IMG/VR virus record: IMGVR_UViG_3300042452_000717 | Location: 1 to 50,940 of that record | Reading direction: 5' to 3' (one strand) | Length of the DNA stretch: 50,940 bases | Origin: a virus | Lineage: Duplodnaviria; Caudoviricetes | Shown here: positions 2,417-50,801 of the stretch, piece after piece | How positions within the stretch are numbered: the stretch's first letter is position 1 | Layout: each line of letters opens with the position of its first letter | Notes under the pieces: model-generated | Told to the model about the DNA's origin: nothing | Database searches by the model: none | Seen by the model: the letters and a program-made list of their open reading frames with translations, nothing else | Made by a program: the position numbers and the translations under genes

Positions 2417-3274
2417 TCAGTCCTGGGGCTGGGCGCTGCCGTTGAGCGCCATGATCGGGTCGGTCAGGAGATCGAACTTGGTGGCGAACAGCGCAAAGCC
2501 GCCCGCCCGGAGGTAGGGCGCATCGCTCTGGAAGAAGTTGCTCATCCGCTCGCGCAGGAGCGCCGTGTCGCCGCCGATGCGCTTCCAGAGCCTCGCGGCG
2601 TGGATGAAATCCGCTGCGGTCGGCGTGTACCGCTCGGCCGGCGGGATGTCCTTCGGGTCGGTCTTGACCGTCACCGTGAGGTCCCCGTGCCGGATGCGCG
2701 CCCAAGCCCGCTGGAACATCTCCACGGCCTGGACGTGCTCGCCCTTCTTCGCCTCGGGTTTGGGCTTCTTCGGGTTCTCGAAGAGGATGCCCGGAGACGC
2801 GCCGCGAGGCGCCGGCTCCAGTCCGGAAGAATGCGAAGCATTCTGGAGGACTGAATCTCTACTCTCCTCTACTCTCCTCTCCTGGGTAGACTTCGCTAGG
2901 GTGTCGCTAAGCGAGCCTGTAGGGTCGCTAGAGGGTTGCTTGGCATTAGCAGCCTTCGCCATGCCGCCCCTACGGCCGGATTCCCGCTGCTGGAGCCGGT
3001 AGGCGTCGGCCTCGGTCCGAGCGGCCTCCATCCAGGGCAGCGACAGCAGCCCGTCGGGTCCGCGCTCGAGCATGGCGGCGAGTAGCGTCTCGAACCCGGC
3101 GCCGCACGTCTGGCGCGCGTCGTCCTCGGTGAGGCGGCCCTCGCGCCAAGAGCGCCACGCAAAGCGCATCATCGCGGCCAGCGCGGCGTCATCGCCGAGC
3201 ACGCGCATCCCGCCGCGGGCTGTGGCGATCTCCGCCACGTCGAACCGAAACCACGGGAGGGGTTTTGTGGTCAT
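2417..3274 (-). CDS. Phage replication initiator / replisome organizer, YdaU (DUF1376)/lambda O-like
   Basis: N-terminus MTTKPLPWFRFD...WREGRL...QRESGRRGG resembles YdaU-type initiators; central low-complexity linker is encoded by repetitive DNA. Confidence 0.7.
   Translation of the reverse strand: MTTKPLPWFRFDVAEIATARGGMRVLGDDAALAAMMRFAWRSWREGRLTEDDARQTCGAGFETLLAAMLERGPDGLLSLPWMEAARTEADAYRLQQRESGRRGGMAKAANAKQPSSDPTGSLSDTLAKSTQERRVEESRDSVLQNASHSSGLEPAPRGASPGILFENPKKPKPEAKKGEHVQAVEMFQRAWARIRHGDLTVTVKTDPKDIPPAERYTPTAADFIHAARLWKRIGGDTALLRERMSNFFQSDAPYLRAGGFALFATKFDLLTDPIMALNGSAQPQD
2856..2941. promoter_or_regulatory. Putative replication origin (iteron-like repeats plus pyrimidine/purine tract) inside the initiator gene
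   Basis: TCGCTA at 2893, 2904, 2925 and variant TTGCTT at 2936 (11/21/11 spacing); adjacent TCTCTACTCTCCTCTACTCTCCTCTCCT tract; locally lower GC. Confidence 0.55.
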
Positions 3275-3289
3275 ACCCGCATCTCCCGC

Positions 3290-3317
3290 TTGCCCTTAGA
3301 CGAGGGCACGCTACGAT
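3290..3317 (+). promoter_or_regulatory. Putative promoter TTGCCC-16-TACGAT
   Basis: Near-consensus -10 at 3312-3317, -35 at 3290-3295. Confidence 0.5.
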
Positions 3318-3396
3318 CTTCGTCGTTCATCGACTGCTACCTCAGTTGGGTGAAAAGTTCCGCCGGGGAGACTCCAACTCCTCGCGCGTGAGCGCC

Positions 3397-3425
3397 GTTG
3401 TACGCCGCCAGCGGCAGACGGTCAA
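3397..3425 (-). promoter_or_regulatory. Putative leftward promoter of the replication operon, TTGACC-17-TACAAC
   Basis: Minus strand TTGACC (3425-3420), 17-nt spacer, TACAAC (3402-3397). Confidence 0.45.
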
Positions 3426-3470
3426 GAAGGCCCTGGCGCACCGCGAGCGCGCCGGGGCCTTCGCCTTTTT
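3426..3470 (+). terminator. Intrinsic terminator
   Basis: 14-bp stem GAAGGCCCTGGCGC / GCGCCGGGGCCTTC with one G-U pair, 9-nt loop, followed by GCCTTTTT. Confidence 0.65.
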
Positions 3471-3504
3471 CGTGACGCCGCGCAAATGGTCGGCGGGTCA
3501 CGGG

Positions 3505-3532
3505 TTGCGTTACTCGAAAAGTTCGCTAGATT
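3505..3532 (+). promoter_or_regulatory. Putative promoter TTGCGT-16-TAGATT for the late block
   Basis: -10 ends 7 nt before ATG 3540, consistent with a leaderless transcript. Confidence 0.4.
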
Positions 3533-3539
3533 CTCGTCC

Positions 3540-3965
3540 ATGCAGACGAGATCGAAGCCCTCGCGTGGCCCTCTTGGCAAGCGCCAGCGCTATACCGGCG
3601 TGGAGACGTGCGAGGCGTGCGGCGGGCCTTGGGCGTACGTCCGGCCGTCGACGGGAAGGACCGAGCGCGCGACGCTGCTGATCGTGGGCGAGGTCGAGTC
3701 GGCGATCCCTGGCAAGACGATCATCGCGCCGGCGCCGGGCCGCCGGGTGCGGGTGTGCATGAAGTGCAATTCGCAGATGCGCAGCGCGGGCACGTTCGAG
3801 CGCGTGAACGTCCCGGTGCGCAGCGTGGTCTCGGTGTACGGCCCGAAGCTCAAGGCGATGCTGGACGCGGGCCTGACGGCGACGCAGATCGCTCGAGCGC
3901 TCGGGGTCGACCGTGACCGGGTGCGCCGCGCGATCGACAGCATGAAGGCGAGCGCCGCGAAGTGA
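3540..3965 (+). CDS. Zn-finger (CxxC...CxxC) plus C-terminal HTH protein (141 aa)
   Basis: CEAC and CMKC motifs; C-terminal GLTATQIARALGVDRDRVRRAI helix-turn-helix; GTGA overlap with terL. Confidence 0.75.
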   Translation: MQTRSKPSRGPLGKRQRYTGVETCEACGGPWAYVRPSTGRTERATLLIVGEVESAIPGKTIIAPAPGRRVRVCMKCNSQMRSAGTFERVNVPVRSVVSVYGPKLKAMLDAGLTATQIARALGVDRDRVRRAIDSMKASAAK

Positions 3966-5923
3966 CGGCGGTGCTCGATCCTGAGCTTGTCGAGGCGCTG
4001 CACGCGGCGAAGGACCGCGCGTACAAGGCGGCCATCGACGCGCCGGACCAGCAGCGGCTCAATCACTTCTTCCTGCTCTACAACCAGGAGCGGGGCGTGT
4101 TCGGCAACCGCAAGGGGAACCGCTGGCGGATGACCCGGCGCGAGTGGATCGAGCGACACGTCGTCATCGTCGACAAGAAGGCCCGCGCCATCCCGTTCAC
4201 GTACAACCAGTCGCAGCGCAACCTCGAGGCGGTCCTGCTGCGGCAAGAGCGGCGCGGCGCCCCGCGGCGCGTGGTGATCCTCAAGGTGCGCCAGAACGGG
4301 ATCAGCACGTTCACGCTCGCCGTGTTCTTGCACGCGCTGCTCACCGTGGCGAACCTGAACCTCCGCGTGGTCACGGACCGCGAGGAGCTGTGCGAGACGC
4401 TGCTGAACCGCGTGAAGCTGATGTTCCAGCGCCTTCGGATGAACGACGGTTCGCCGTGGAGCCTGAACCCGGAGAAGTCGAACCGGGACATGATCGTGAT
4501 GGGCGCCCCGTTCAACTCGCGCATCCAGGTCGTGAGCGCGAACACGCCGAATCCGGGCTTCGGCGAGACGAACCTCTACGTCGACATGGAGGAAACCTCG
4601 AAGTGGCCGGACGCCGAGGAGAAGGGCAAGGGCATCGAGCTCGCGCTGCCCGAGCTCCCCGAGACGCTCGCCATCGACGTTTCGCAGGCCAAGGGGAACA
4701 CGGGCTACTTCGCCGACAAGTTCCGCCGGGCTTGGTACAAGCAGCAGGGGCTCGCGCTGCCCGACGACCTCAAGCAGGAGGACAACGGCGGCGTGTCGGA
4801 CGGGTCCGGCTGGCACGCGATGTTCATCCCGTGGTTCCTCCACGAGGAGTATCGCTGGACGAAGATCGGCTCGAACCCGCCGGTGCTGCCCGAGCCGGTG
4901 CGCGCGCGCATCGAAAAGACGCTCACGCCCGAGGAGCGCATCCTTCTCGCGCAGCGCTTCCACATCCGGGGCAAGCCGCCTCAGTGCGTCAGCTACGACC
5001 AGCTCGCTTGGCGGCGGTACTACATCTCGGAGAAGTGCAACGGCAACCTCCAGACGTTCCATGAACAGTGCCCGGCGTTCCCCGAAGAGGCGCTGCTCGC
5101 GTCGGGCCGGAGCGCGTTCAACCTGGAGCACGTCCAGTTCAAGATGGGCACCCACATCCGGGCGCCGCTGGCGGTGGCGAAGCTCGTTGAGTCGGAGGGC
5201 AAGCCGCACTTGCTGCACGACCGGCACGGCGAGCTCAGCGTGTGGCGCTGGCCGGCGATGGGGCGGCAGTACGTGATCGGCGTGGACACGGCGGCCGGCG
5301 TGCGCGGAGGCGACCCGTGTGTCGCGCAGGTGATCGACGCGCAGACCGAGGCGCTCGTCGCGGAGTGGTACGGCTGGGAGCCGCCGCACGCCTTCGGGCG
5401 CACCGTGAAGCTGCTCAGCGACCTCTACAACGCGACGGTCGCGGTGGAGACGCACCCCTCCCAGCACGGCCTCGCGGTGTACGAGGCGGCCGAGGCGGCG
5501 GGCTGCCAACGCCTGTTCGTCCAGCAGCGCTGGGAGGACCGCGAGGGCAAGTTCGTGCTGCGCAAGGGCTGGATCATGAGCGCGCAGGGCAAGGCGCTCG
5601 TGATCGACCGCGTTGCGATCGCACTGGCCGACCAGAACGTCGATACCCCCTCGAAGCGGCTGCTCCAGGAGTGCATGGACGCGCAGCTCGACGAGAAGGA
5701 GAAGATCGACCGCAAGTGCCGGAACGACGCGATCATGGCCTACGGCATCGCGCTCAAGCTCCTCGAGACGGTGAAGATCCAGAACGTGAAGCCCGCGGAG
5801 CCCGAAAAGCTCCCGCCGAGCGGCTCCGATGAAGATTTCTGGCGAGCGCGCAACCAGCGCCGCGGCTCGACGGATGGAACACCGAGGCGCTTCGACAAAG
5901 GCCCCAACGGGCAAGGACTGTGA
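3962..5923 (+). CDS. terL: Terminase large subunit
   Basis: Adenine-binding YNQSQ, Walker A VILKVRQNGIST, nuclease motifs YVIGVDTAAG and NDAIMAYGIA. Confidence 0.93.
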   Translation: MTAVLDPELVEALHAAKDRAYKAAIDAPDQQRLNHFFLLYNQERGVFGNRKGNRWRMTRREWIERHVVIVDKKARAIPFTYNQSQRNLEAVLLRQERRGAPRRVVILKVRQNGISTFTLAVFLHALLTVANLNLRVVTDREELCETLLNRVKLMFQRLRMNDGSPWSLNPEKSNRDMIVMGAPFNSRIQVVSANTPNPGFGETNLYVDMEETSKWPDAEEKGKGIELALPELPETLAIDVSQAKGNTGYFADKFRRAWYKQQGLALPDDLKQEDNGGVSDGSGWHAMFIPWFLHEEYRWTKIGSNPPVLPEPVRARIEKTLTPEERILLAQRFHIRGKPPQCVSYDQLAWRRYYISEKCNGNLQTFHEQCPAFPEEALLASGRSAFNLEHVQFKMGTHIRAPLAVAKLVESEGKPHLLHDRHGELSVWRWPAMGRQYVIGVDTAAGVRGGDPCVAQVIDAQTEALVAEWYGWEPPHAFGRTVKLLSDLYNATVAVETHPSQHGLAVYEAAEAAGCQRLFVQQRWEDREGKFVLRKGWIMSAQGKALVIDRVAIALADQNVDTPSKRLLQECMDAQLDEKEKIDRKCRNDAIMAYGIALKLLETVKIQNVKPAEPEKLPPSGSDEDFWRARNQRRGSTDGTPRRFDKGPNGQGL

Positions 5924-6228
5924 TGGACTGGCTCACCCTCTCGATCATCTTCGCGGCGCTCCTGCTCGCGTTCTACGCGGTCGCCAACTCGGGCCGCATG
6001 GCGCGCGAGGCGATGCGCCGACAGGCCGACATGGAGCGGCTGCTCGTTGTTGCGCGGCTGGCGCAGTCGGGCGATCCGACCCAGCAATCCCTCGCGCATC
6101 TCGTTGGTACGATGGGCCAGCCGCAGCAGGCTCCGCTCCAGGCGCCCGCGTTGCAGCGAATCCCGATTGAGGACCAGGACCCGATTGACGCTCTCGGCTA
6201 CGACCTGCCGAGCTCGCTCAAGGGTTGA
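5920..6228 (+). CDS. Small membrane protein (one N-terminal TM helix)
   Basis: WLTLSIIFAALLLAFYAVA hydrophobic stretch; coupled to the terL stop. Confidence 0.7.
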   Translation: MMDWLTLSIIFAALLLAFYAVANSGRMAREAMRRQADMERLLVVARLAQSGDPTQQSLAHLVGTMGQPQQAPLQAPALQRIPIEDQDPIDALGYDLPSSLKG

Positions 6229-6240
6229 TTCGAGGGCACG

Positions 6241-8355
6241 ATGCAAGTCAAGAAAAGCTACGCGCAGGCCACGCACAAGACGCACGGGCGCTTCTCGAAA
6301 GAGGAGGCGCTCCAGTACGTGACCGCGCGGATCAGCCCGAAGCTGAACGACTCGCATCGGCAACCGATGGAACGCGAGTGGGTCAAGAACCTCGCGTTCC
6401 TCAATGGAAACCAGTACTTCGTCGACGACGGGATGGGGTTCCGCACGCCCGTCCTGCCCCCGCACAAAGTCGTATACCGGGCGAACATCGTGCGCACGCT
6501 CGTCACGCGCGCGATCAGCACTGTGCTCGCCAGCTCGTCAGTGTTCCGGGCGCCCACGCGCGACCACTCCAAGGCGGAGCGCGACAAGGCGTTCGTCACC
6601 GAAAAGCTGTTCGAGCACCTGCGCGACAACGTGGTGAACTGGAGCGAGCTGCTCGAGGAGGCGCTGACCTGGGCGGCGGTGTGCGGCTCCGGCTTCATCG
6701 AGATCGGCTGGAACGCCGAGGCGGGATCGCCGGACCGCTTCTACGTCGACGAGAACGGCGAGACGATCCTCGGGCTCACGCCGGACCAGCAGCGCATGGC
6801 CGAAGAGGAGGGCCGCTACGAGGACCTGCCGCCGGGCGAAATCACGGCCAAGGTCCACTCGCCGCTGCGCGTGCGCTGGGACTGGAGCTCGCGCACGGAC
6901 TTCCAGGCCGATGAATGCACCTGGGCGGGCACCCAGGAGATCGTCGACATGGCGTCGCTTGAGGACACCTACGGCGCCGCGGCGATCAAGGGCGTGAAGC
7001 CGCTCGAGCCGCGCACCACGTCGTTGTGGTGGGACGAGATGCTCTCGTTCATGCACGGCGGCCAAGCGCAGTCGCCGGGTTTCCTCCAGCCGCGCGACAA
7101 GTCCAGAAGCCGGACGGTGCTCTCGAGGTTCTTCGAGAAGCCGATGCGCAAGAACAACTGGAAGGGCCGCTACATCGTGATCGCGGGCGAGACCGTCCTG
7201 GTCAATCGGGACAACCCGATGCGCGCGACGAAGTACCCCATCCCCTTCGTCAAGATCGACTGGCAGAAGCGGCCGGGCTCGTTCGTCGGGCACCCGCTCA
7301 TGGACGACCTGCGCAACCCCCAGTTCCAGTACAACAACGCGCGGGCGCACCAGACGGAAGTGGTGAACGTCCACTCGCACCCGCCGATCTTCGTCGACAA
7401 GCGCTCGGGCCTGCCGACGGGGATGCTCGCCATCGAGCCGGGCGTCGCGTACCCGTGCGACGTGCTGGCGTCGGGCGGGAAGCCGGTGACGCTGGGGCCG
7501 GTGCCGCAGATCCCCAAGGAGCTCGCGGACAGCGCGAACCGGGCGCTCAGCGAGATGCAGATGATCTCGAGCCAAGCCGACCCGGACATGAGCAAGCTGC
7601 CGGGGCAGATCCGCTCGCGGCCGGGCCTCGACGCGATGATCGAGGAGAAGAACAAGGCGCTGACGCCGGCGGCGCGGAGCGCCCTGCGCGCGACGCTGAC
7701 GGGCGGGCGGATGATGCTCTCGGTCGCGCGGGCCTTCTACACGACCCGGCGCACGATGCAGTACGTCGGCGCCGACAACGCCTACCGCGTGGCCGAGTTC
7801 GAGTCGGCCGACATCCGCGACGACATCCGCATCGTCGGCGAGCCGGACTACTTCCAGAGCCGAAGCGTGGAGCGCGCGCGCATCCTGGAGTACGTGCAGG
7901 CGGGCGTGCTCGACCCGATCAACAACCCCGAGGACAAGCTCAGCGTGCTCAAGACGCTGGCCTACGGCGGCGCCGAGGACATCCTCGCGCAGCGGCTCAT
8001 CGAGGAAGAGAACCAGGAACGGGAGTGGGACGAGATGACCGGCGATCCGCTCAAGTGGATGCGCCAGAACGACATGGGCCAGCCGATGCTGGACTACCCG
8101 ACCCACGACTACGACGACGACGGCACGCACGTTCGCGTGATGCAGCAACGGATGCGCTCGGGAGAGTTCCGCGACCTCGACCCGATTGCGCGCCAGCTCG
8201 TGATCCAGCACTACCAGGATCACGTCGAAAAGATCCAGCGCGCCATGATGCAGCAGATGCAAATGCAGCAGATGGCGCAGCCGGGAGGGTCGGCCAACCG
8301 CGGCCAGCCCTCGAGACCGAAACCCAAGGCATCCCAAGGAGCCGCCCGTGGCTAA
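6241..8355 (+). CDS. Portal protein (P22-like, 704 aa)
   Basis: Position after terL; NLAFLNGNQY, CGSGF, YPIPFV, DLRNPQFQYN motifs; Q/M-rich C-terminal tail. Confidence 0.88.
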   Translation: MQVKKSYAQATHKTHGRFSKEEALQYVTARISPKLNDSHRQPMEREWVKNLAFLNGNQYFVDDGMGFRTPVLPPHKVVYRANIVRTLVTRAISTVLASSSVFRAPTRDHSKAERDKAFVTEKLFEHLRDNVVNWSELLEEALTWAAVCGSGFIEIGWNAEAGSPDRFYVDENGETILGLTPDQQRMAEEEGRYEDLPPGEITAKVHSPLRVRWDWSSRTDFQADECTWAGTQEIVDMASLEDTYGAAAIKGVKPLEPRTTSLWWDEMLSFMHGGQAQSPGFLQPRDKSRSRTVLSRFFEKPMRKNNWKGRYIVIAGETVLVNRDNPMRATKYPIPFVKIDWQKRPGSFVGHPLMDDLRNPQFQYNNARAHQTEVVNVHSHPPIFVDKRSGLPTGMLAIEPGVAYPCDVLASGGKPVTLGPVPQIPKELADSANRALSEMQMISSQADPDMSKLPGQIRSRPGLDAMIEEKNKALTPAARSALRATLTGGRMMLSVARAFYTTRRTMQYVGADNAYRVAEFESADIRDDIRIVGEPDYFQSRSVERARILEYVQAGVLDPINNPEDKLSVLKTLAYGGAEDILAQRLIEEENQEREWDEMTGDPLKWMRQNDMGQPMLDYPTHDYDDDGTHVRVMQQRMRSGEFRDLDPIARQLVIQHYQDHVEKIQRAMMQQMQMQQMAQPGGSANRGQPSRPKPKASQGAARG

Positions 8356-8923
8356 GACCACCCAACCCAAGACCGAACCGCCCCACCAGGGCGCTCAAGT
8401 CGCGTCCGAGCCCACCACGGCGACGACGGACCCCTCCCCGGCCTCCGAGGCCAAGACCGAAGGCATCGAGCCGGCGAAGGCGAAGGCGAAGAAGAGCCAG
8501 AACCCAGCCGCCGAGCTCTTGCTCAAGAAGATCAAGCGCGACGCGCAGAAGAAGCGCGAGGAGTTCGAGCAGGACGCCGAGGAGAACATTCACTTCCTCA
8601 AGTGCCCGCGCATCGCGGGTCACCACGCGGCCTACCTCACCGGCCCGTACGAGGGCGAGATCCGGCCCGACCAGTGGTACTCGCTCATCAAGCCGCAGGA
8701 GAGCTCGGTCTGGACGCGCGACCACATCCCTTGCCAGGAGTGCTACCTGGAAGGCGACCAACGCCCGTGGGCGGTTCACTTGCTGCCGAAGCGCAGCGAG
8801 GACGGGTCTTTCAGCTTCCGCGTCAACGTCAAGCGCGAATACGTGCTCGGCTCGTGCAGCCGGGAAGAGTTCGAGGAGCGCCGCGGCTCCATCAACGAGT
8901 CCATCGGGGAGAAGGTGATCTGA
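8348..8923 (+). CDS. Hypothetical protein (191 aa), possible Zn-binding C-terminal domain
   Basis: Overlaps the portal end; KCP...GHH...CQEC motif. Confidence 0.75.
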   Translation: MAKTTQPKTEPPHQGAQVASEPTTATTDPSPASEAKTEGIEPAKAKAKKSQNPAAELLLKKIKRDAQKKREEFEQDAEENIHFLKCPRIAGHHAAYLTGPYEGEIRPDQWYSLIKPQESSVWTRDHIPCQECYLEGDQRPWAVHLLPKRSEDGSFSFRVNVKREYVLGSCSREEFEERRGSINESIGEKVI

Positions 8924-8926
8924 GCC

Positions 8927-9940
8927 ATGAGCGAACGAATCGAAATCCAACCCAACGGCGGCGCTCCGGCGGAACGCCCCAGCCCGTTCGAGGCCCTGCG
9001 CGCGATGCGCAACGGTGGCGATCCCGCCGCCGCTGGCGGAGCTCCGCAGCCGAGCAAGCTGGCGCAACTCATCGAGCAGCGCCAAGCCCAGCCGACCGCG
9101 GCCGACCCTGCGCGCCAGCGGCTCGACGAACCGCCCGCGGCTCCGGCGCCGGCCGCGCCCGCGGCTCCGCAGCGTCACAAGGTCAAGTTCCGGCACCAGG
9201 ACGTGGAGCTCGACGAGGCCGATCTGGTCAAGTACGCCCAGAAAGGCATGTCGGCCGCCAAGCTCGAGGAGCAGCGGCAGAAGTTCGAGCAGGAGAAGCG
9301 CGACCTCGAGGCCCGCGTCGGGATCGTGCAGAACCTCGAGCGCTTGGCGCAGGTCGACCCGGCCCGGTATCAGGCCGTGATCGACGCCATGCACGGCCGC
9401 GCGCCGCAACGCGGACTGGCCGACGATGGTGTCCAGGATTTGGACGAACCGATCTTGACTGGCAACCGTGGGGCGCCTAACGTGAACACAGCCATGGAGC
9501 AGCGAATCGCTGCCCTCGAGGCGCAGCTCCAACAGACTGCGCAGACCTTCCACCAGAAGGACTACGAAACGAGGGCCAGCCAAGCGCTCAGCTCCCAGGC
9601 GTACATCCGGCAGAACCCCGAAGCTGGGGAAGTGGCTCGAAGCCTTCTGGACGCTGCGCTCGCCGCCCGCGAGTTCGACACGCCGGAAGAGGCTGCACCG
9701 ATCATCGCGGCGAAAGTCCGCAGGATCGCCGAGGCCCACATGGAATCGGAGCGCAAGGCCCGTCAGTCGGCCCAGGACGCATCCATGCCGCGTACGCCGA
9801 GCGGGTCTCCGAACATCCCTCGGATCGACCCCAAGAACCTGACGCGCGAGGCGCGCAGGAATGGCACGTCGACCAAAGCCCTCCAAGGGCTGGTCAACGC
9901 CTTCCGCCAGCAGTTCAGCGGGACCAACCAACTCCTCTAG
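8927..9940 (+). CDS. Capsid scaffolding protein
   Basis: Directly upstream of the capsid gene; Pro/Ala-rich N-terminus, HKVKFRHQDVELDEADLVKYAQKG motif, coiled coils. Confidence 0.8.
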   Translation: MSERIEIQPNGGAPAERPSPFEALRAMRNGGDPAAAGGAPQPSKLAQLIEQRQAQPTAADPARQRLDEPPAAPAPAAPAAPQRHKVKFRHQDVELDEADLVKYAQKGMSAAKLEEQRQKFEQEKRDLEARVGIVQNLERLAQVDPARYQAVIDAMHGRAPQRGLADDGVQDLDEPILTGNRGAPNVNTAMEQRIAALEAQLQQTAQTFHQKDYETRASQALSSQAYIRQNPEAGEVARSLLDAALAAREFDTPEEAAPIIAAKVRRIAEAHMESERKARQSAQDASMPRTPSGSPNIPRIDPKNLTREARRNGTSTKALQGLVNAFRQQFSGTNQLL

Positions 9941-42200: not shown

Positions 42201-42411
42201 GGTCGCGGTCCTCCTCTTCGATGAGTTCTGCGTGCGCCTCGTGCACTTCTGCGTCGGAGCACTCGTCGCTGCACTGATGGCACAGCGAGACGTGCGCCCT
42301 TCGCAGCGCCTTCTCGACAGCTTCCTCCTCGGTCGCGGCCTCGAACTCGCCGAGGTACTTCGATCCAATCACGGTCCCCACGACGGACCACTTGCGCTTC
42401 TTGTCAGCCAC
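42193..42411 (-). CDS. Small acidic hypothetical protein (72 aa)
   Basis: GTG at 42411; EAATEEEAVEKA motif and LCHQC. Confidence 0.65.
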   Translation of the reverse strand: MADKKRKWSVVGTVIGSKYLGEFEAATEEEAVEKALRRAHVSLCHQCSDECSDAEVHEAHAELIEEEDRDRG

Positions 42412-43536: not shown

Positions 43537-43654
43537 GGCTCGGGTGTGTGTTGCGGTGAGTGATAGAAAGAAGCGGCCCGCGCGGAAGATGAACAACGGC
43601 TAGAGCGCCGCGCGAGCCAACCCGTGCCCTAGCCTGCTCGGGTGTACGTGAGTC

Positions 43655-44824
43655 CTAGCCCTTCTCGGCCGTGTCCAAGCCAGCGGCGCGCATCAAAGCG
43701 AACCGCTTTTCCATCAGGGCGAGGCACCAGTCCGCGGCAAGCGCTCCGCGCGGAATCGCGTGCGCCTCGAACTTCTTGCTGACGGCGAACTGCACGGCTT
43801 TCTGGAGCAACGTGTGCCGGCCGCCGCCTTCGCCGCCCATGATCGCCTGCGTCGGCGTGTACGCCTTGAGCGGGCCGTTCGTCCACACGTTCTCGCCGGC
43901 CACGTCCGAGAAGCTGTCGAGCCGCGCCTTGAGTTGGAGCTCGAGCCCGTCGGCGTCGTTCACGTCCACGCCGCCCATGCTCGGGTCGTACCAGTTGGAC
44001 GGATGGCTCAGCGGGTGGGCCGTCTGCGTGACCTGCTCCACTTCCGGCGCCGGCTCGGGCTGCTGCTGCTGCGGAGCCTCGGCGAAGGGATCTTCCTCCT
44101 CCTGCGGCTGCGCGTCCTGCACGATCTCCGCCACACGCGGCTCCGTGGGCGTCGGCGCAGCGGGCGCAGCCTGGGACTTCCCAGGAGCTTGAGCGCCGAG
44201 CGCCTTGCGGGCGTGCTCCTTGACCGCCTCGATGGTCCGCGGGCGCTCGTTCTGTGCGGGCTGGCCCTGCTGCGGCGCGCGCTCGGCCTGGATCTGGTCG
44301 AACTCGTCGTTCACATAGAGGCCCATGCACACGTCCGGCCACAACTCGCGGGCAAGCCGCGCCGAAGCACGCGCCATGAGCATCGCGCGCTTGTTCATCT
44401 TCCAGTTCCCCTTGCCCAGAAGCCCAGCCTCGCGCGCCTCGTCGATCGTGTACGCGATGTCGAGCACTTCGCCCGTGTCCGAGCGCTTGCCTTCGTAGGC
44501 CGCCTCGGTGTCGTTCACGCGGATGAGCTTGAAGTGCGTGCATTTGCCCGAACTGCGCACGATCGCGGTGAGCAAGTCCGACGACATGCCGACTTTGCCG
44601 TCGATGACGTGCATCTCAGCCAGAGCCATCATCAGCCCGATGCCCAACTCGTGGGCGCGCATCCCAACGAGGAAGATGTTGCTCGGCTTGTTGCGGTACG
44701 CAGTGGGGACAAGATCCGACGCTGCGAGCGTGCTCGCCATGCGCATCAGTTCTTCGGGATCGCGCGCCGTGAGTCCGGCGGTGCGATTGGTGGCGGGAAC
44801 AGTGAGAGCCTGCTGCTTTTCCAT
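43655..44824 (-). CDS. recT: RecT/Bet-like single-strand annealing protein (389 aa)
   Basis: LAASDLVPTAYRNKPSNI...ELGIGLMMALAEMHVIDGK...EAREAGL...NWK...ML.ARA...ARELWPD..MGLY; adjacent to the YqaJ exonuclease. Confidence 0.8.
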   Translation of the reverse strand: MEKQQALTVPATNRTAGLTARDPEELMRMASTLAASDLVPTAYRNKPSNIFLVGMRAHELGIGLMMALAEMHVIDGKVGMSSDLLTAIVRSSGKCTHFKLIRVNDTEAAYEGKRSDTGEVLDIAYTIDEAREAGLLGKGNWKMNKRAMLMARASARLARELWPDVCMGLYVNDEFDQIQAERAPQQGQPAQNERPRTIEAVKEHARKALGAQAPGKSQAAPAAPTPTEPRVAEIVQDAQPQEEEDPFAEAPQQQQPEPAPEVEQVTQTAHPLSHPSNWYDPSMGGVDVNDADGLELQLKARLDSFSDVAGENVWTNGPLKAYTPTQAIMGGEGGGRHTLLQKAVQFAVSKKFEAHAIPRGALAADWCLALMEKRFALMRAAGLDTAEKG

Positions 44825-44853
44825 CTTGCGGTGTTGTGAGTTGTGAGAGGTAG

Positions 44854-45837
44854 TTAGACGGCCTGCGCCGCCTTGGTCAGAATCAGCGGGCGCGTGGTCT
44901 GCGTGTAGGCAGCCTTCGCCGAAATGTTGGCGACGCGGTTCTTCCACGTAGCCACAAGCACGCCGCCAACGGTCGCGCCTTCTGCTTCTTTCATCGCCGA
45001 CTTGAGCGCAGCCTGTGCTTGGTCGGCTGCGTCCTCGGCGATCTTGAGCGCCTGCTTCGCGTCTCGGTACTTGGCGAACACGATGGGGTCGACCTCGACG
45101 CTTGAGCCCACGACGGCGCGCTTCCACAAGCGGCCAACCTCCTCCGAACTCGTCAAGTGGTCGGGCTCGGGCGGGATGCTCGGCGCAACATGCTCGCGCC
45201 AGAAGCGTTCGCACGTCTCGCGGATCAACAGCCACAAGTCCGCATCGAACTTGATGTAGTACGGGCGCACGTCGTCGCCGCCGAAGTCTGCAACGAGCAA
45301 CCCCTCGTCGAACGGCATCCCGCACTCGCGCAGCACGCCTAGCTGCTGCTGCACCTGGAGCACGTAGTAGATCGGCGGGCCGTCCTTCCACTTCATGCGC
45401 TGGTCGGGGTCGATCCGCTTCACTTCGAGCGGAGCCTCGAACTCTGCGCCATCAGTGACGAAGAAGTCGGGGGTGCAGGAAAGCACGCTGCCGGGGATGC
45501 GCCAGACGACGCGATCGTCGTGCGCAAGGCAACATGCACTACCCACGCGCGCGAGCCGGAGGTTTTCCCACTCCGCCGGCGTGTAGAGGTTCAGCGAGTT
45601 CTCGCCAGCGTAGAAGGTCGCAATCGCGTGCTCGAACACTTGGCCCGCGCGCATCTTGCTCGTCTCCTCGACCTCCTCGCCCTTCTTGTGCGAGTAGACG
45701 CCGAAGGCGGAGCGCCACGGGTTCGCGCCCATCAGTGCGGGCGACTCCGAGGCGCCGATCATGTTGCGGCGCGCTGCGGCCCACTCTGCGGTGGTCTGGA
45801 ACGTCAGCGGTGCGACGGGTGAAAAGGCGGTTTTCAT
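44854..45837 (-). CDS. YqaJ/lambda-exonuclease family recombination nuclease (327 aa)
   Basis: EWAAARRNMIGASE...NPWRS, SCTPDF, PLEVK, YYVLQVQQQL. Confidence 0.9.
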   Translation of the reverse strand: MKTAFSPVAPLTFQTTAEWAAARRNMIGASESPALMGANPWRSAFGVYSHKKGEEVEETSKMRAGQVFEHAIATFYAGENSLNLYTPAEWENLRLARVGSACCLAHDDRVVWRIPGSVLSCTPDFFVTDGAEFEAPLEVKRIDPDQRMKWKDGPPIYYVLQVQQQLGVLRECGMPFDEGLLVADFGGDDVRPYYIKFDADLWLLIRETCERFWREHVAPSIPPEPDHLTSSEEVGRLWKRAVVGSSVEVDPIVFAKYRDAKQALKIAEDAADQAQAALKSAMKEAEGATVGGVLVATWKNRVANISAKAAYTQTTRPLILTKAAQAV

Positions 45838-45839
45838 GG

Positions 45840-46217
45840 CTAGTTCGATTGCTCGATGCGGCGCAGCGTGAACTCGCGCCAAGAGGGAGGGAGTTTGTCG
45901 AGGTTGTGGGCCAGCAAGTCCAGCGGGGCGCGACCGAAAGGCTCGCCGATCATGCGGAACTCAAGGCGCACGCCGGGGAGCGGCTCCAGCATCTCCACTT
46001 CGCAGACGCCGTAGTAGATCGTCCGCTCTCCGCGCTTGGCGTCGGTGTCGAGCATCTGGCGCGCGGCTTTTGAGGCCCCCTGTGCGATGCCGCGCAGTTC
46101 GGCGCGGTCCAGCCCCATCATCACGCCGACAACCTCGTCGAGCGTGTTGTCCGAGCGAATGACGAGGCAGCAAATCGCGTGGATGCGAACGGAGTCGCGG
46201 GTCGTCGTGGTGGTCAT
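45840..46217 (-). CDS. Hypothetical protein (125 aa)
   Basis: First gene downstream of the 46260-46288 promoter-like element. Confidence 0.7.
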   Translation of the reverse strand: MTTTTTRDSVRIHAICCLVIRSDNTLDEVVGVMMGLDRAELRGIAQGASKAARQMLDTDAKRGERTIYYGVCEVEMLEPLPGVRLEFRMIGEPFGRAPLDLLAHNLDKLPPSWREFTLRRIEQSN

Positions 46218-46259
46218 CTTTCGGGTCCTCGAGCGCGTGGGTTAGGTCGCGCTTCGACG

Positions 46260-46294
46260 ATGGTAGCCGCCGGTCAACGCCGAGGGAACGGCAA
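46260..46294 (-). promoter_or_regulatory. Putative leftward promoter TTGCCG-TTCCCT-17-TACCAT
   Basis: Same layout recurs at 50243-50278 upstream of the other leftward operon. Confidence 0.45.
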
Positions 46295-46430
46295 TTCGCC
46301 GAAAACATGGAAGAATGGCGGGGCCGAACTTTGGCGGGCGCGGGGGGAACGAGTGATAGATAGCTGGGCTCGAGGTTCTGAGTCTGGGATTGGTTCTGGG
46401 GTTTGGAGGTTTGGGACGGCCGGCCTGGCT

Positions 46431-46500
46431 GTCCAGGATTTGGACGGGCTGGGTCCACGGTCTGGAAATAGAGGCGCCCCGCGTCGTCCTGAGATTGGAC
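46431..46500. repeat. Cluster of three 15-bp GTCCA-N5-TGGAC-type palindromes
   Basis: GTCCAGGATTTGGAC 46431, GTCCACGGTCTGGAA 46453, GTCCTGAGATTGGAC 46486. Confidence 0.8.
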
Positions 46501-46652
46501 GGGCGGGGCGCGAGTGTCGGGCCGGCGGGGCCGTTAGAAGTTGGCGCAAGGGCCGAGGATTGCGGCGGCGAGCACGATTCCGGCGACGGTCAACGCGAGT
46601 TCAGCAGCGGCGCGTTCGATCCACGGCGGCGGATCTTCGGGGCGGGGGGCGC

Positions 46653-47210
46653 TCATTCGAGCGGCGGCTCGGCGTGGAAATCGCTCGGCGGCGTGGTGGT
46701 GTAGCCGATGGACGCGAGTTGGTCTCCGATGTCCTCAAGCAAGCGAGCTTCGTCGCAATCGTCCTGCGCGAGCCGGTCTGCGATGTCGTTGGCGATTTGG
46801 TAGAGGGCGTCGGCGTGCTCCTCCTCGCTCTCCAGCGTCTCGCGTTCGTTTGCGTCGTAGGCGAGGCGAAGCGCGGCGCGTTGGTGGCGCGCGCAGTCCA
46901 GCGCGAGCGCGACGCTGATAGCCTGCGAGGCGGGCAAGCCGGCGAGTTTGGCGGCGGCGTCCACGGGTCGATTCTCTTCCAGTAGGTAGACGATCTCGCG
47001 GGCGATCCGGTTCGCGTCCACGATCGGAAGGGCGCTGCGCATCGCAGCCTCTTCGCGTTCCCAAGCTGCATCTGTGGGCACTCCGCGATCATCTGTCTCC
47101 TCGTCGTGCTGCGCGTCGATGATGGCGCGGGCGTGCTCGATCTGCGCCTGAGTGCTCGCGCGCTTGTCGGCGTCGATGCTGGCGGGGCTGGTGGTGTGCT
47201 GCGTGTCCAT
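46653..47210 (-). CDS. Acidic helical hypothetical protein (185 aa)
   Basis: ATG at 47210 (MDTQHTTS...); about 40 D/E versus about 16 K/R by hand count. Confidence 0.7.
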   Translation of the reverse strand: MDTQHTTSPASIDADKRASTQAQIEHARAIIDAQHDEETDDRGVPTDAAWEREEAAMRSALPIVDANRIAREIVYLLEENRPVDAAAKLAGLPASQAISVALALDCARHQRAALRLAYDANERETLESEEEHADALYQIANDIADRLAQDDCDEARLLEDIGDQLASIGYTTTPPSDFHAEPPLE

Positions 47211-47254
47211 TGTGTCGGGTGTGGTAGGTAGTTGGTGTTGGTCGGTCGGTCGGT

Positions 47255-48499
47255 TCACACTGCGACGCGCCCCAGGTGGGCGCGAAGCGTTTTCGTCCAG
47301 ATGGGAACGAGTTCGGCGGGGTCGGGAACCACGATCGGCGGGACGCTTGACCAGCCGGCGCGTTCGATGGAGTCGGCTCCGTCTACTGCGTCGCTGCCAA
47401 GCAAGATCGGCCAAAGCTCGACGCCAGCGGCGCGAGCGTTGCGCCATTGGGGCTCCTCGGCGCGCACTGCGCCGTCGCAGATCAGCATCAAGACTCGGCG
47501 CGGCTCGTGGCGCTTCGCAAGCTCGGCGCAAGCGCGGGCGCAGGCCTTCGGCGCGTGCGTGTCGTAGCTGTACCATTCGGGCATCACGTCAAGCTCTGTT
47601 TGCGCGTGCGACTGCGCGTCATTCCAGCCGATCACGTCTCGCCATTGTTCGGGCACTCCAGGCGCGGGCCGCACTTCGCGCGGGTCTCCGTACTGCGACA
47701 GTGCGACTTTGATTCCTGCGCGAGCGAGTGCGCGATATGCAATCGCAGCCGCGCGCTTCGCAGCCTCGCCGCGTCCGAATTGGCGCATTGAGCCGCTAGC
47801 GTCCAGCGCGATAAACACTGCGCAGCCGCGCACGTCCGGCTTGATGCGGCGCGAGAACGCACGATCCAGGTCGAGTCCAAGGGCCGTCGGCGCAATTCGT
47901 GACAGGTCGAGTTCGCCCGCGTCTTGATTGTGCATCTCGCGTCCGCGTCGGCGCTCGCGCAAAGCCTCCGACAGTGCGGCGCGAATCAAGGGTTCACCGC
48001 TGTAGTCGATCGGCCCCTTGAGGGTGCCAGCGGCGAGCGGGTCCACGATTGCGCCGTCAACGTTCACGGGCGGGCTCTGGCCCTCGACGTTCGCGTTGAC
48101 CAGCTGCATAACCTCCGATCCGTCGGCGGGCGCGGTCGGGCTTGCTTGGAACGTCTGGCCGTGGCCGTCGATCTGGCCGACAACGCGAACCGTGGGCGTG
48201 CGTCCCTTCGGGGCGCTGTCCAGGCCGGGAAACTCGGGCAGCTGGAAGGGCCGGCCGTTCTTCGGCTTCTTCCATGTCTTGGGCGATGCTTGCTCGTTCG
48301 TCCACTTCGCCAGACGCTCGGGCTGGTTGATGCGCATTCGCGCGGCGTGGTTCGCAAACTCGGGCTCGCAACCGATCCACGCGAAGGCGCGGGCGTGGTG
48401 CTGCGCCGGCGTCTCGGTCGGATGCTCGCGCTGCGCCTTCTCGTAGAGGTCGGCGAGACGGTAGAGCGTGCGGCGGCGCTGTAGCGGGGTGAGCTTCAC
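47255..48499 (-). CDS. VWA-domain protein, CobT-like partner of the MoxR ATPase (414 aa)
   Basis: GELDLSRI...AFSRR, MIDAS motif VFIALDASGSM, LMLICDG; GTGA overlap with the ATPase. Confidence 0.85.
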   Translation of the reverse strand: MKLTPLQRRRTLYRLADLYEKAQREHPTETPAQHHARAFAWIGCEPEFANHAARMRINQPERLAKWTNEQASPKTWKKPKNGRPFQLPEFPGLDSAPKGRTPTVRVVGQIDGHGQTFQASPTAPADGSEVMQLVNANVEGQSPPVNVDGAIVDPLAAGTLKGPIDYSGEPLIRAALSEALRERRRGREMHNQDAGELDLSRIAPTALGLDLDRAFSRRIKPDVRGCAVFIALDASGSMRQFGRGEAAKRAAAIAYRALARAGIKVALSQYGDPREVRPAPGVPEQWRDVIGWNDAQSHAQTELDVMPEWYSYDTHAPKACARACAELAKRHEPRRVLMLICDGAVRAEEPQWRNARAAGVELWPILLGSDAVDGADSIERAGWSSVPPIVVPDPAELVPIWTKTLRAHLGRVAV

Positions 48500-49938
48500 G
48501 GGGCGCCAACCTTCCAGCCTGCATCGTCGGGCTTGATGATGGTGGCCGCGTTCGTTGCTTGTCCAGGCGTCAGCAAGTTGAGAATGCCGAGGCGCCACGC
48601 GGTCTTGGGCGGGATGGCGTCCACGCCCGCGCGGCCGGCATCGTCTCGGCCGAGCACCATGCGCAGCCATTGGACGCCTAGGCGCGTGCTGGGCGGGATC
48701 GTGAGGTTTCCGCGCAAGTGCTCGCGCCGCAAGTGCGCCAGCGTCTCGGCGAGTTTGCGCGAGCGCGCAGCGTCCAGGCCGGCGCGTTCAAAGAGCGCAG
48801 CCTCTTCGGATTGTGACAGGTAGTCGGCCGCGATCCCTCGGCAACGAGTCAGAAAAGCAGCGTCGATCCGGTGCGACGAATAGCTTCCCGACTCGTCTCG
48901 GAGTCCGTTGCAAGTGCCGATGATTTGAAAGCCGGGCGCGGCCGTGATTGTCTCTCCGGTCTCGGGCAAGTAGAGAGTGCGGCGCGTGGTGTCGGGTTCA
49001 AGCGGCGCGTGAAACAGTGCGGCGAGCAACGGGTCGAGCTTGTCGCACTCGTCCAGTACCAACACTGCGCCGCTCTTCATCGCCAGCGGCAGCGGTCCGT
49101 AGCGGTACTCCAGGCTCGGCGTCGTCTGCGACGGGCGACACGCAAGCGCGCTGTAGGTGATTCCGTCCGCGCAACTGACCAGGACTGCGCGGCGTCCTGC
49201 GCGGGCGCATTCCTGCAAGATCGGATAGGTTTTGCCGCTGCCGCTCGGGCCGCTGACCAGGGCGTGCGAGTGTCGGGCGAGCATCGCTCGAATCTCGGCG
49301 CTCGTGTCGCTCGCGTCATGGTAGAGCGCGTCGGGCGTCGGGATCTCTCCGACGAGTGCGACGGGTCCGCCCTTGGCGCGGGCGTTCACTTCGACCAGGG
49401 CGGCGCGTGCTTCGTCGTACGCTGCGCGGCGGGCGTGAAGCTCCAGGGCTGCGGCGTCGTACTGCGGGCGTGCTTCGACTGCGGCGAGGCGCGAAACTAG
49501 CGGCGTGTCGAGCTCCTCGGCGATGCGGCGAACCTCGTCCGGGTCGATGCTTGCGCGCTGCGGGCCGAGGCGGGCTTGAAGCTCGGCCGCGAGCATATCC
49601 AGGGCGCTCGATGCTGCCGGCGCTGCGACCGGCGCGCTGCGCGGCTGCGGCGTGGTGAGAGGTAGCGTCGGCGTCGCCAGCGGCGCGGCGAACGGTGCGG
49701 GCGCAGGAACGCTCGAACGCTCCTCGCTGGCGCTCGGGTGGACGGGAACGGCGGGCAGTCCGCACGCCTTGTGTGCGTAGACGTTCACGCGCTTGCCGGC
49801 TTTGCTGTGTCCAGGCGGGTAGGTGTAGCCATCGTGGATCGACAAGATGTGCGATCCTTCCGGGTAGGCTCGGCCGCACGTCCAGCATGTGCCGCCGTAC
49901 TTGCTGGCGGTGTACTCGCGGGTTTCGGTGGCGGTCAT
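48496..49938 (-). CDS. MoxR/CobS-like AAA+ ATPase with N-terminal Zn-ribbon (480 aa)
   Basis: Walker A GPSGSGKT, Walker B VLVLDECD, sensor IIGTCN, DAAFLTR, STR; N-terminal SKYGGTCWTCG...HKAC. Confidence 0.9.
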   Translation of the reverse strand: MTATETREYTASKYGGTCWTCGRAYPEGSHILSIHDGYTYPPGHSKAGKRVNVYAHKACGLPAVPVHPSASEERSSVPAPAPFAAPLATPTLPLTTPQPRSAPVAAPAASSALDMLAAELQARLGPQRASIDPDEVRRIAEELDTPLVSRLAAVEARPQYDAAALELHARRAAYDEARAALVEVNARAKGGPVALVGEIPTPDALYHDASDTSAEIRAMLARHSHALVSGPSGSGKTYPILQECARAGRRAVLVSCADGITYSALACRPSQTTPSLEYRYGPLPLAMKSGAVLVLDECDKLDPLLAALFHAPLEPDTTRRTLYLPETGETITAAPGFQIIGTCNGLRDESGSYSSHRIDAAFLTRCRGIAADYLSQSEEAALFERAGLDAARSRKLAETLAHLRREHLRGNLTIPPSTRLGVQWLRMVLGRDDAGRAGVDAIPPKTAWRLGILNLLTPGQATNAATIIKPDDAGWKVGAP

Positions 49939-50171
49939 GCCTGCACACTCCGCCCGGCGAGCGCTGCGGCGTAAACCTCGGCGGCGTTCGACACTCCAGG
50001 AAGCTCCTGGGCAAGCGTCGTTGCGCACACTCGGGAAAGAGTCTTGGCGGGCAAGTGGCGGATCATTCCGCCCATCGCAGCGAAGCGCGAGGCGCGGCGG
50101 CGCATGACACGGCGCGCAATGTTGCTGCGGGCCTGCGCGATCGTGCGCGGCGTGAGAGGTAGCGTGGTCAT
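49935..50171 (-). CDS. Small basic hypothetical protein (78 aa)
   Basis: ATG at 50171 with AAGGA upstream; ATGA overlap with the ATPase. Confidence 0.55.
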   Translation of the reverse strand: MTTLPLTPRTIAQARSNIARRVMRRRASRFAAMGGMIRHLPAKTLSRVCATTLAQELPGVSNAAEVYAAALAGRSVQA

Positions 50172-50242
50172 CGGTTCATCCTTCGGGTGGGTGCGCGCTT
50201 CGCTCCGCCTTGCTCGGTCGGACCGCGTAGCGCGCTGCATCC

Positions 50243-50289
50243 CTTGTAGCGGACTCTTCGGCATAAGGGAACGGGCAATCCGCTACGAT
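50243..50289. promoter_or_regulatory. Putative leftward early promoter (TTCCCT-17-TACAAG) within an inverted repeat, plus a rightward TACGAT
   Basis: Inverted repeat GTAGCGGA (50246-50253) / TCCGCTAC (50279-50286); shares AGGGAAC(G)GGCAAT with 46283. Confidence 0.4.
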
Positions 50290-50704
50290 CTTCGCATCTT
50301 ACTGCGCCCTTACAATTGAAGGGGCTGCGCAAGCCTCGGCGCTCCAACCTCTTGCGAGCACCGTGCGGGCCGTCACTTGACAAGGGCCTGCCAGGGCCGT
50401 CCCTTGCCTTGGGGCTGCGCAGTCGGGATCTTCGCCACGCTGGGCGGGCGGAGCAGCGCTGCCCATACCAGCCAACTGCATGACGTGCCTGGGGCGCGGC
50501 CGCACAACGCTGGGCTTGGATGCGCCGGCCGCTCGGATCGGGGATCGGATCGGACGGTGAGTGAGAGGTAGGTGCGCACTGATGCGCCGGCCGGATCGTG
50601 CGGGTGATCGGTCGGACGGTCGGAACGTCGGACGTGGGGAGGGAGGGGATCAACCGCGCGCCCGCCCGCTCTCCCCACCGCCACGCCGGCCGCCGCCCCA
50701 GGCC

Positions 50705-50801
50705 GTCCAGAATCCGGACGCCGGCCGGCCGCACCGATCGTCCAAGTTCTGGACACTGACGCGCGCGGTAGAGTCCAAGATCTGGAATCCAGAATCTGGA
50801 C
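50705..50801. repeat. Cluster of four 15-bp GTCCA-N5-TGGAC-type palindromes
   Basis: GTCCAGAATCCGGAC 50705, GTCCAAGTTCTGGAC 50740, GTCCAAGATCTGGAA 50773, ATCCAGAATCTGGAC 50787. Confidence 0.85.

Follow-up and report, generated by a model that had tools for sequence, protein, structure and literature searches.

The operators OL and OR of phage lambda comprise three to four palindromic sites, approximately two helical turns apart, that lie ahead of the early operons and are cooperatively bound by dimers. The CIRs of the Streptomyces phage phiC31, a 17-bp inverted repeat bound by the repressor, occur at many loci of its genome, and the sites IR1–4 of N15 are dispersed over the genome of that phage. 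Clusters of dyad-symmetric sites are also bound by replication organisers, as in the lambda O iterons and the sites of SPP1 G38P, which are arranged in two distant clusters. IR1–4 are centromere sites of the N15 prophage-plasmid, according to passages of PMC7205306. In cluster A mycobacteriophages, a single short motif, the stoperator, is found at the early promoter and across the genome, structural genes included, and the L5-type repressor also blocks elongation at these sites, as outlined in parts of PMC9283540 and PMC6550527. The operators of KorB (OB) on plasmid RK2 are odd-length palindromes dispersed over the plasmid, some at promoters and others far from them, and global, long-range silencing is described for them in portions of PMC11790492. 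Here we describe a dispersed 15-bp palindrome, GTCCA-N5-TGGAC, in a phage genome of 50,940 nt (IMG/VR virus record IMGVR_UViG_3300042452_000717, positions 1–50,940; ‘the window’ denotes this whole stretch of DNA), for which a first-pass annotation made from the sequence alone had proposed a parS-like or operator system.

Like the stoperators, the palindrome is dispersed genome-wide beyond any immunity region, with seven to nine copies between 2.7 and 37.2 kb. Stoperators are asymmetric, bound by monomers and oriented with transcription, whereas the motif here is a symmetric palindrome located mostly inside genes rather than at gene junctions; an asymmetric, strand-tied orientation is instead displayed by a second motif, the 11-mer CTACCTNTCAC, all eight copies of which lie on one strand and are confined to 44.8–50.6 kb. 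Stoperator phages are temperate, with an integrase and a repressor, neither of which was found here: a scan of 51 open reading frames (ORFs) against Pfam and PHROGs detected no integrase, repressor family, ParA, polymerase or methylase. The KorB OB sites resemble the motif in being odd-length palindromes dispersed over a replicon, and differ from it in lacking its free centre; KorB itself, a CTP-dependent clamp of the ParB family, acts together with KorA and a ParA partner, whereas neither a ParA nor a partition-type ParB is present here. Arrays of palindromic sites heading early operons are shared with lambda OL/OR, which overlap core promoters and, unlike the copies here, are confined to the immunity region. 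An inverted repeat at many loci is shared with phiC31, a temperate siphovirus with a known repressor gene and a CIR sequence unrelated to the motif. N15 likewise scatters a few palindromic sites for one dimeric protein over a phage genome, but encodes SopA and SopB, neither of which was seen in this phage. The kind of system is probably already known, with stoperators and KorB as precedents, and it is the phage lineage carrying it that is unfamiliar.

The core TCCA-N5-TGGA occurs 14 times in the window, each copy where the first-pass annotation had placed it, as compared with a mean of 0.32 and a largest count of 3 in 100 dinucleotide shuffles (0/100 reaching 14). Other backgrounds gave expectations of 0.91 (Markov-4; 100 runs, largest 3) and 0.99 (k-mer product); the earlier rough estimate of ~0.5 cores falls within the range of 0.32–0.99 obtained here, and the excess holds against the Markov background. 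Six copies are perfect GTCCA-N5-TGGAC sites, as had been reported, with 0.01 expected (0/100 shuffles). In a scan of all half-sites of 4–6 bases with spacers of 0–9, made with no prior choice of motif, TCCA-N5-TGGA was the top over-represented spaced palindrome in the window (14 vs 0.99) and, independently, in a relative (10 vs 0.87), a 52.9-kb contig (G001) that is collinear with the window at approximately 80% nucleotide identity; the 10 core sites of this relative compare with 0 for a reversed control. The spacer is specific, with 14 copies for N5 and 0, 0, 0, 0 and 1 for N3, N4, N6, N7 and N8, respectively, and the swapped order, TGGA-N5-TCCA, occurs twice. The observed excess is real and far from chance. 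Genome-wide there are 37 matches with at most one core mismatch, 23 of them carrying one mismatch; the variants singled out earlier at 7101, 39281, 46486 and 50705 are present with one core mismatch each and make up 4 of these 23.

Base preferences outside the searched core were counted over 26 sites symmetrised to 52 half-sites, with orthologous pairs counted twice: the outer base is G in 36/52 half-sites, position 6 is a purine in 43/52 and the central base is A or T in 38/52. The fuller consensus is GTCCAR-W-YTGGAC. The high-GC DnaA box is TTGTCCACA, which GTCCA recalls; DnaA boxes were considered and set aside because the CACA end is not kept. Two further palindromes, GGTCGACC (10 vs 1.6) and GCTCGAGC (17 vs 5.2), are over-represented in the whole genome, probably owing to a codon effect in a high-G+C genome (68% G+C). 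The core also contains CCA-N5-TGG, the target of a PflMI-type restriction–modification or methylation system, and a methylation link had been offered as an alternative in the first-pass annotation. Restriction targets are normally depleted rather than enriched. Here, CCA-N5-TGG occurs 22 times, 14 of these being the TCCA..TGGA subset and 8 being others, with 13.6 expected for all (Markov-4), so that the wider site is not enriched beyond that subset, and no methylase or restriction nuclease of that kind was detected among the 51 ORFs. This explanation is extremely unlikely.

Copies located inside genes were evaluated in 42 called genes by synonymous-codon shuffling and by codon-order shuffling (2000 each). 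Nine core sites are present, as compared with 3.67 under the former (6/2000 reaching 9) and 1.29 under the latter (0/2000), and four full 15-mers compare with 0.61 and 0.11, respectively (0/2000 in both). The first-pass annotation had cautioned that codon structure inflates the expectation and that the copy at 11406 may be chance. The excess inside genes is partly real, and its distribution over reading frames, obtained from 1500 shuffles each with the protein sequence fixed, is uneven. Five copies read in the frame GTC CAG ... GAC, against 3.35 expected (331/1500 reaching 5), which is no excess; two read TCC A.. ... TGG A.., against 0.34 (46/1500), a mild excess; and the two in the costliest frame, ..T CCA ... 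..T GGA, at 20369 and 34757, compare with 0.003 (0/1500), a strong excess. Codon-preserving shuffling, which the first-pass annotation had proposed as a check, thus upholds an excess overall and gives none for the five copies in the cheap frame. In the relative, six in-gene copies compare with 2.26 (7/1000) under one shuffling and 1.28 (4/1000) under the other.

The five cheap-frame copies, including those at 2720 and 11406, could be chance. The latter two are possibly so because they use common codons, encode conserved protein motifs and have an outer C in place of G: the core match at 2720–2734 lies in a DUF1376-like gene, where it encodes VQAVE within the conserved motif EHVxAxEMFQRAW, and that at 11406–11420 encodes LQDMD in common codons of the major head gene. 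The perfect site at 20369–20383 is a run of six rare codons (TGT CCA GGA AAT GGA CCT), where the relative reads TGC CCA GGG ACC GGA CCC, and the site at 34757–34771, near the end of the gene for a 2713-residue (aa) protein, reads CGT CCA GGA TTT GGA, again in rare codons. Both runs lie in the true coding frame, which stays coding, in agreement with the unusual codons noticed in the first-pass annotation. The remaining dispersed copies comprise a site at 9431–9445 in the gene preceding that of the major head protein, identical to the site at 46431 over 17 bases, as noted before, and 83% alike over 29; a perfect site at 14084–14098 in gene 13761–14723; a site at 19019–19033 in a gene for a 1411-aa protein; a perfect site at 22694–22708, 44 b ahead of the start of gene 22738; and a site with outer bases A..A at 37163–37177 in gene 36188–37402. 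At least four of the seven to nine copies between 2.7 and 37.2 kb exceed codon-aware chance. Given the background, spacer and codon-aware shuffle results, the two clusters described below and about four intragenic copies are clearly non-random; chance does not account for the clusters, nor for at least four of the copies inside genes.

Alignment with the relative separates kept sites from sites present in one lineage only. Sites at 46431, 19019, 37163, 2720 and 11406 and the pair at 50773/50787 are common to both phages, and the changes in shared sites fall in the N5 spacer, with 2720 also differing at an outer base. Site 46431 has 0/15 changes in a flank that is 15% diverged, site 37163 has 0/15 with a flank at 10%, site 19019 has 1/15 (in the spacer) with flanks 25% diverged, and the 50773/50787 pair has two changes each, in the spacers only; 46453 has no counterpart in the relative. 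The lineage-specific sites of the window are 20369, 34757, 22694, 14084 and 9431, the last of these in a region that cannot be aligned, and the relative has two others. In both phages such copies coincide with bursts of 7–9 changes per 15 bases, against 12–19% in the flanks: site 34757 shows 8/15 changes with 12% in the flanks, site 22694 differs or is gapped at 9/15 with a flank at 19%, and the two relative-only sites show 7/15 and 8/15 changes with flanks at 15–16%. Site 14084 has 5/15 changes in a flank at 30%. Because decay of a site needs one or two changes and building one needs many, the bursts are read as probable site gains under selection, in a comparison of only two lineages. Lack of conservation in relatives, named in the first-pass annotation among the findings that together would refute its proposal, is not what was seen, given the 10 copies in a phage ~80% identical.

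Both phages have the motif unchanged, whereas identity between their early genes is only 35–69%, and no phage-encoded binder was found; these two findings would suit a host global regulator or nucleoid protein recruited by the phage. A double-site pattern, searched among viral contigs, was found in G001 and in a fragment of the same lineage (G002) only, and in 185,579 species genomes it gave 5 isolated, apparently coding matches with no more copies within 2 kb. A text search in six spellings found no mention of the motif in the papers covered. A host factor is on balance unlikely.

Seven sites lie in two tight non-coding clusters, as the first-pass annotation had it (46431, 46453, 46486, 50705, 50740, 50773 and 50787), and both clusters are located upstream, in the leftward sense, of minus-strand gene blocks. 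The arrays of dyad-symmetric sites heading the two leftward blocks, of two to three and four sites, respectively, are conserved in the relative, where the cluster sites form conserved islands amid diverged or indel-rich DNA. Cluster 1 (46431–46467) consists of the perfect site at 46431 and that at 46453, with centres 22 bp apart, and heads a block running from 46217 down to 37399 that encodes a 125-aa ORF, a RecE-like exonuclease, a RecT-like annealase, RusA and an HNH protein. Cluster 2 (50705–50801) consists of four sites, at 50705 (one core mismatch), 50740, 50773 and 50787, the last two overlapping by one base, with centre-to-centre spacings of 35, 33 and 14 bp; it heads a second block, from 50171 down to ~46534, that encodes a 78-aa ORF, an AAA_5 ATPase, a VWA protein, a 198-aa acidic protein and a 40-aa hydrophobic ORF. 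Comparison with the relative shows the overlapping pair and the half-sites of cluster 2 to be kept, while the N5 spacers change and indels are present between sites. Centre spacings of 22 and 33 bp are well suited to proteins bound along the same helical face.

The order of elements leftward through cluster 1 is the stop codon of the 40-aa ORF, a hairpin, site 46453, site 46431, half-site-like repeats (TCTGR / TTTGGR, 46375–46417; seen by eye, partly conserved in the relative) and the 11-mer copy CTATCTATCAC at 46353, followed by a 136-base leader and the 125-aa ORF. Leftward through cluster 2, the sites are followed by TCGGA(A)CG repeats, the 11-mer copy CTACCTCTCAC at 50561, a leader of ~390 b and the 78-aa ORF. 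Four TCGGA(A)CG repeats were found by eye at 50550–50635, three in tandem at 50612–50635, and they resemble, again by eye, the CGGAC half of the 50705 variant. A shared leader element, AGGGAACGGCAAT, is repeated no more often than chance would give. Among the 15 lowest-GC 80-nt stretches of the genome, only 50239–50318 is near a cluster. The leader preceding the 78-aa ORF contains a hypervariable patch at 50236–50280, where a diverged allele common to three lake runs shows many substitutions and small indels over 45 b, and contigs of three metagenome runs diverge from the window at 50676–50703, a mosaic breakpoint right at the left edge of cluster 2.

The hairpin beside cluster 1 (46472–46509, minus strand) is GC-rich, carries the 46486 variant at its tip, is followed by a U-containing tail, CUCUAUUUCC, and lies just downstream of the stop codon of the 40-aa ORF. 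It folds at −36.9 kcal/mol (z −2.7, 1/200 shuffles as stable), and the relative has GTCCGGGATTCGGAC at the corresponding position. Rather than being a plain binding site, this element probably terminates or attenuates leftward transcription. The palindrome at large might similarly act as a hairpin, either in RNA, as a boxB or terminator, or as extruded DNA, as in an N4 virion-polymerase promoter. Its 5-bp stem and 5-nt loop equal the geometry of boxB, and RNA folding of perfect copies gives −6 to −8 kcal/mol. However, the stem sequence is fixed, with no compensatory changes seen; the outer pair is mismatched in 8/14 copies, leaving 4-bp stems at −2.5 to −4.6 kcal/mol; and base preferences at position 6 and at the centre are symmetric. 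N4-type polymerases occur in polyvalent proteins, as mentioned in parts of PMC5512222, but the giant 2713-aa protein showed no polymerase similarity in a profile search of solved structures or in PHROGs. A role as a hairpin is very unlikely.

The reading that we favour, with moderate confidence, is that the sites are operators of a symmetric dimeric phage regulator for the two leftward early blocks, with the dispersed copies acting in the manner of stoperators or KorB operators. The first-pass annotation had proposed that a dimeric protein marks the whole genome; this part of it stands as the best reading, and ‘operator’ fits better than ‘parS-like’ because the clusters lie upstream of the leftward blocks and the motif is conserved in the relative, while the two phage proteins that it named as binders do not fare well, as discussed below. 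The 15-bp palindrome would be recognised by a DNA-binding protein that acts as a symmetric dimer and that the phage itself most likely encodes. Arrays of two to four sites, partly in helical phase, in the two non-coding control regions heading the leftward early blocks would allow the bound protein to set transcription of both, the one comprising the 78-aa ORF, the AAA ATPase and the VWA protein, and the other the 125-aa ORF and the RecE-like and RecT-like genes and onward. Single copies in the rightward structural operon may widen the reach of the protein by serving as roadblocks, looping anchors or loading points, and these scattered copies would be kept or newly made by selection at the level of DNA.

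Several observations weigh against the operator reading. The clusters are 215 and ~530 b from the first start codon, beyond classical operator distance, and a promoter scan of 46000–50940 gave one sigma-70-like match, away from the clusters, with a consensus that may not be that of the host. No perfect site is present in the leftward block at 37.4–46.2 kb, and the five cheap-frame copies show no excess. The conservation evidence comes from one independent relative lineage. A role as lysogenic repressor is without support, since no integrase, repressor family or ParA was detected. No cognate binding protein was identified among the phage ORFs. The 78-aa ORF (49935–50171, minus strand) is a candidate binder by its position only, as the first gene leftward of cluster 2; it is 69% identical in the relative and has a conserved C-terminal helical pair, but no family was found for it, a homologue search returned the query alone, with none beyond the relative, and its structural model is poor (pLDDT 55), too poor for a structure search.

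The 125-aa ORF gave one real homologue in a homologue search, and no family or fold was found for it. Nothing was found for the small ORFs in Pfam, PHROGs, sequences of solved structures or the ESM Atlas, nor in NCBIfam for those other than the 78-aa ORF. One of the two binders named in the first-pass annotation, a helix-turn-helix (HTH) protein placed there at 3540, is a 159-aa zinc-ribbon and HTH protein (3486–3965, plus strand) directly upstream of the large terminase gene and is probably the small terminase. It shares only 43% identity with its counterpart in the relative, from which it differs in the second HTH (recognition) helix. Because this helix differs while the motif is identical in both phages, the protein is hard to square with the role of binder, and its candidacy is weak.

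The other named binder is a ParB-like module of the 2713-aa protein (26803–34944, plus strand), and with it comes the proposal that a ParB-family clamp loads at the sites, as at parS, and acts in plasmid-prophage partition, genome condensation or KorB-like silencing. The module (nt ~29125–29811, residues ~775–1003) is of the DdrB-like type, is followed by a helical region and shares 30–38% identity with giant proteins of many unrelated elements. A HELAH zincin metallopeptidase motif, conserved in 6/6 aligned relatives, follows it, and homologues of residues 740–1060 carry LPD38, ART-PolyVal, helicase and methylase Pfam domains (PF18857, PF18760, PF18819, PF13871/13872 and PF04851). In being a giant late product with a DdrB-like ParB, a zincin peptidase and LPD-type homologues, the protein has the design of a polyvalent protein. 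Partition ParBs carry an arginine-rich CTP box, whereas the motif in this module reads DGHQR. No stand-alone ParB with a CTP box and a site-specific HTH is present, the only ParB-like module being that inside the 2713-aa protein. The palindromes of parS and OB are contiguous, whereas the site here has a free centre of 3–5 bases. ParB, KorB and the SopB of N15 do mark DNA by dispersed short palindromes, according to passages of PMC11790492 and PMC7205306, and the ParB-like module with its following helical region is a possible binder. The combination of a DdrB-like ParB and a peptidase is, however, described in parts of PMC5512222 for injected polyvalent proteins, where DdrB-like ParB domains are predicted to be DNases, regulated by NTP and for the most part non-specific, that are ‘unrelated to chromosome partitioning’, and no ParA-like match was found among the 51 ORFs. 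The module is thus a weak candidate, and the parS-like proposal is decidedly unlikely. Within the same protein, approximately 1400 residues have no recognisable domain, and homologues of 1655–4612 aa are present in many metagenomic contigs. Homologues at 95%, 67%, 67%, 50% and 41% identity lie on contigs of 53.1, 45.7, 20.0, 24.5 and 12.1 kb, respectively. Comparison with solved structures, by sequence and by profile, gave no similarity to a polymerase or other enzyme.

One or both clusters might instead be replication origins, with the sites acting as origin-type iterons bound by a replication organiser. The candidate organiser is the 285-aa DUF1376-like protein (2417–3274, minus strand), a homologue of which carries PF07120. 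At 95% identity it is the best conserved protein in the relative after the HNH protein, matching the unchanged motif; its alignment retrieved G001 and G002 only, and a named-phage search with it gave no match. In its structural model, residues 10–105 show winged-helix-like matches and residues 174–279 helicase-loader-like matches (T4 gp59, SPP1 G39P), all of them weak and at noise level (Z below 5 or E above 0.7). The detrended cumulative GC skew has its minimum at 45.7 kb in the window, 0.7 kb from cluster 1, and at 47.3 kb against 48.2 kb (0.9 kb) in the relative; on the other side, GC skew in phages is shaped for the most part by transcription and codon usage. Strong positive GC skew is also present on the plus strand over ~7.6 kb (from 45.7 kb across the junction to 2.5 kb), whatever the direction of the genes. 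A non-coding block of ~220 nt (50773–50841 continuing into 1–130) abuts cluster 2 on its rightward side and stands out from its surroundings by far better conservation with the relative. Within it is a long imperfect G-rich/C-rich inverted repeat, with a plus-strand consensus fold of −53 kcal/mol; the block has no Rfam match and might serve as an origin or packaging site or encode a structured RNA. The site clusters resemble those of lambda and SPP1, the latter likewise having two distant ones. In those phages, however, they lie in or next to the organiser gene, whereas here they are ~3 and 7 kb from the DUF1376-like gene, whose only copy is weak and explained by the conserved peptide. We know of no dispersed selected copies of the lambda O or SPP1 origin sites, and an origin function leaves the selected copies inside structural genes without a reason. 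We consider an origin function somewhat unlikely.

The second motif, CTACCTNTCAC, is present in eight copies with at most one mismatch between 44843 and 50571 (at 44843, 46353, 47221, 47899, 48813, 49655, 50152 and 50561), 8/8 on the minus strand, as compared with a mean of 0.9 and a largest count of 3 in 30 Markov-3 runs. The relative has six copies, 6/6 on the same strand, and three copies are orthologous between the phages. One copy lies 67 b leftward of cluster 1 and another 134 b leftward of cluster 2; this placement just leftward of each palindrome cluster suggests that both motifs work together. Several copies are located 8–25 b ahead of start codons (the RecT-like gene, the 198-aa ORF) and others inside genes, and no consistent −35 element was found upstream of the copies. 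Possible roles of CTACCTNTCAC are those of a promoter core specific to the phage, an asymmetric site of the stoperator kind or a signal in RNA.

The window is one complete phage genome. The first 99 b of the virus record are identical to the last 99 b, the signature of a circularly closed assembly with a unique length of 50,841 b, and a contig of another metagenome run extends beyond the window end. Genes were called by third-position G+C in combination with Pfam and PHROGs. Apart from the two leftward blocks, the map contains a rightward late operon (3486–37402), encoding the zinc-ribbon/HTH protein, the large terminase, the portal, the major head protein, an internal-virion-protein-like gene and the 2713-aa giant, and a small mixed region (355–3274) that includes the gene for the DUF1376-like protein. 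The sole ATPase found is AAA_5/MoxR-like and is paired with the VWA protein. No Rfam families or tRNAs were found in the window. Where the late and early genes converge, the lowest-G+C stretch of the genome (37868–37947, 47%) contains a hairpin with an A-tract, a stem and a T-tract that looks like a two-way terminator.

The lineage is remote from described phages. A megablast of 25 kb against named phages gave no match, and the large terminase is only 22–25% identical to those of the nearest named phages (Roseobacter, Vibrio and Stx phages). Searches with the major head protein and the terminase returned one independent lineage (G001 and its fragment G002), an identical fragment (G003) and two distant contigs (G004 and G005), the last two with 0 copies of the core site. 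A portal protein search found no relatives in species genomes and thus no prophage relative. Near-identical DNA is present in lake and freshwater metagenome contigs of several studies, with no RNA among the 18 matches listed, and among the differences listed for four metagenome runs none falls inside the sites of 30941–50940, with 145 further differences existing. A metagenome scan added two short contigs, 92% and 89% identical, which cover 3309–8750 and 3309–4626 only and contain no perfect palindrome; both match from 3309 on and carry a different module upstream, marking a mosaic breakpoint. G005, a 41-kb viral contig with a terminase 25% identical, has a 12-base palindrome of its own, CCTGACGTCAGG, in four copies (13583, 32229, 33430 and 33848; 0.01 expected), three of them within 1.6 kb, which suggests that phage-specific palindromic site sets are common in the wider group.

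The palindrome set is real, conserved and under selection, and its mechanism is probably of a familiar type, a dimeric regulator with a genome-wide operator set, in an almost unannotated phage lineage. As it stands, it is a well-supported yet fairly ordinary regulatory motif. A bolder version, which we put forward tentatively as possible, is that an integrase-less freshwater phage maintains a genome-wide palindromic operator network, with new copies actively written into structural genes at the expense of codons and even of amino acids, and with an orphan reader of no known family; such a network may work together with the co-located CTACCTNTCAC. If true, global silencing in the style of stoperators or KorB would have been invented independently outside actinophages and plasmids. 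If the operator reading holds, genome-wide operator networks would not be confined to actinobacteriophages and IncP plasmids. The palindrome would then also provide a clean case of selection on DNA overriding codon choice inside phage structural genes, and the site could serve as bait for a new DNA-binding protein from a mostly unannotated phage lineage.

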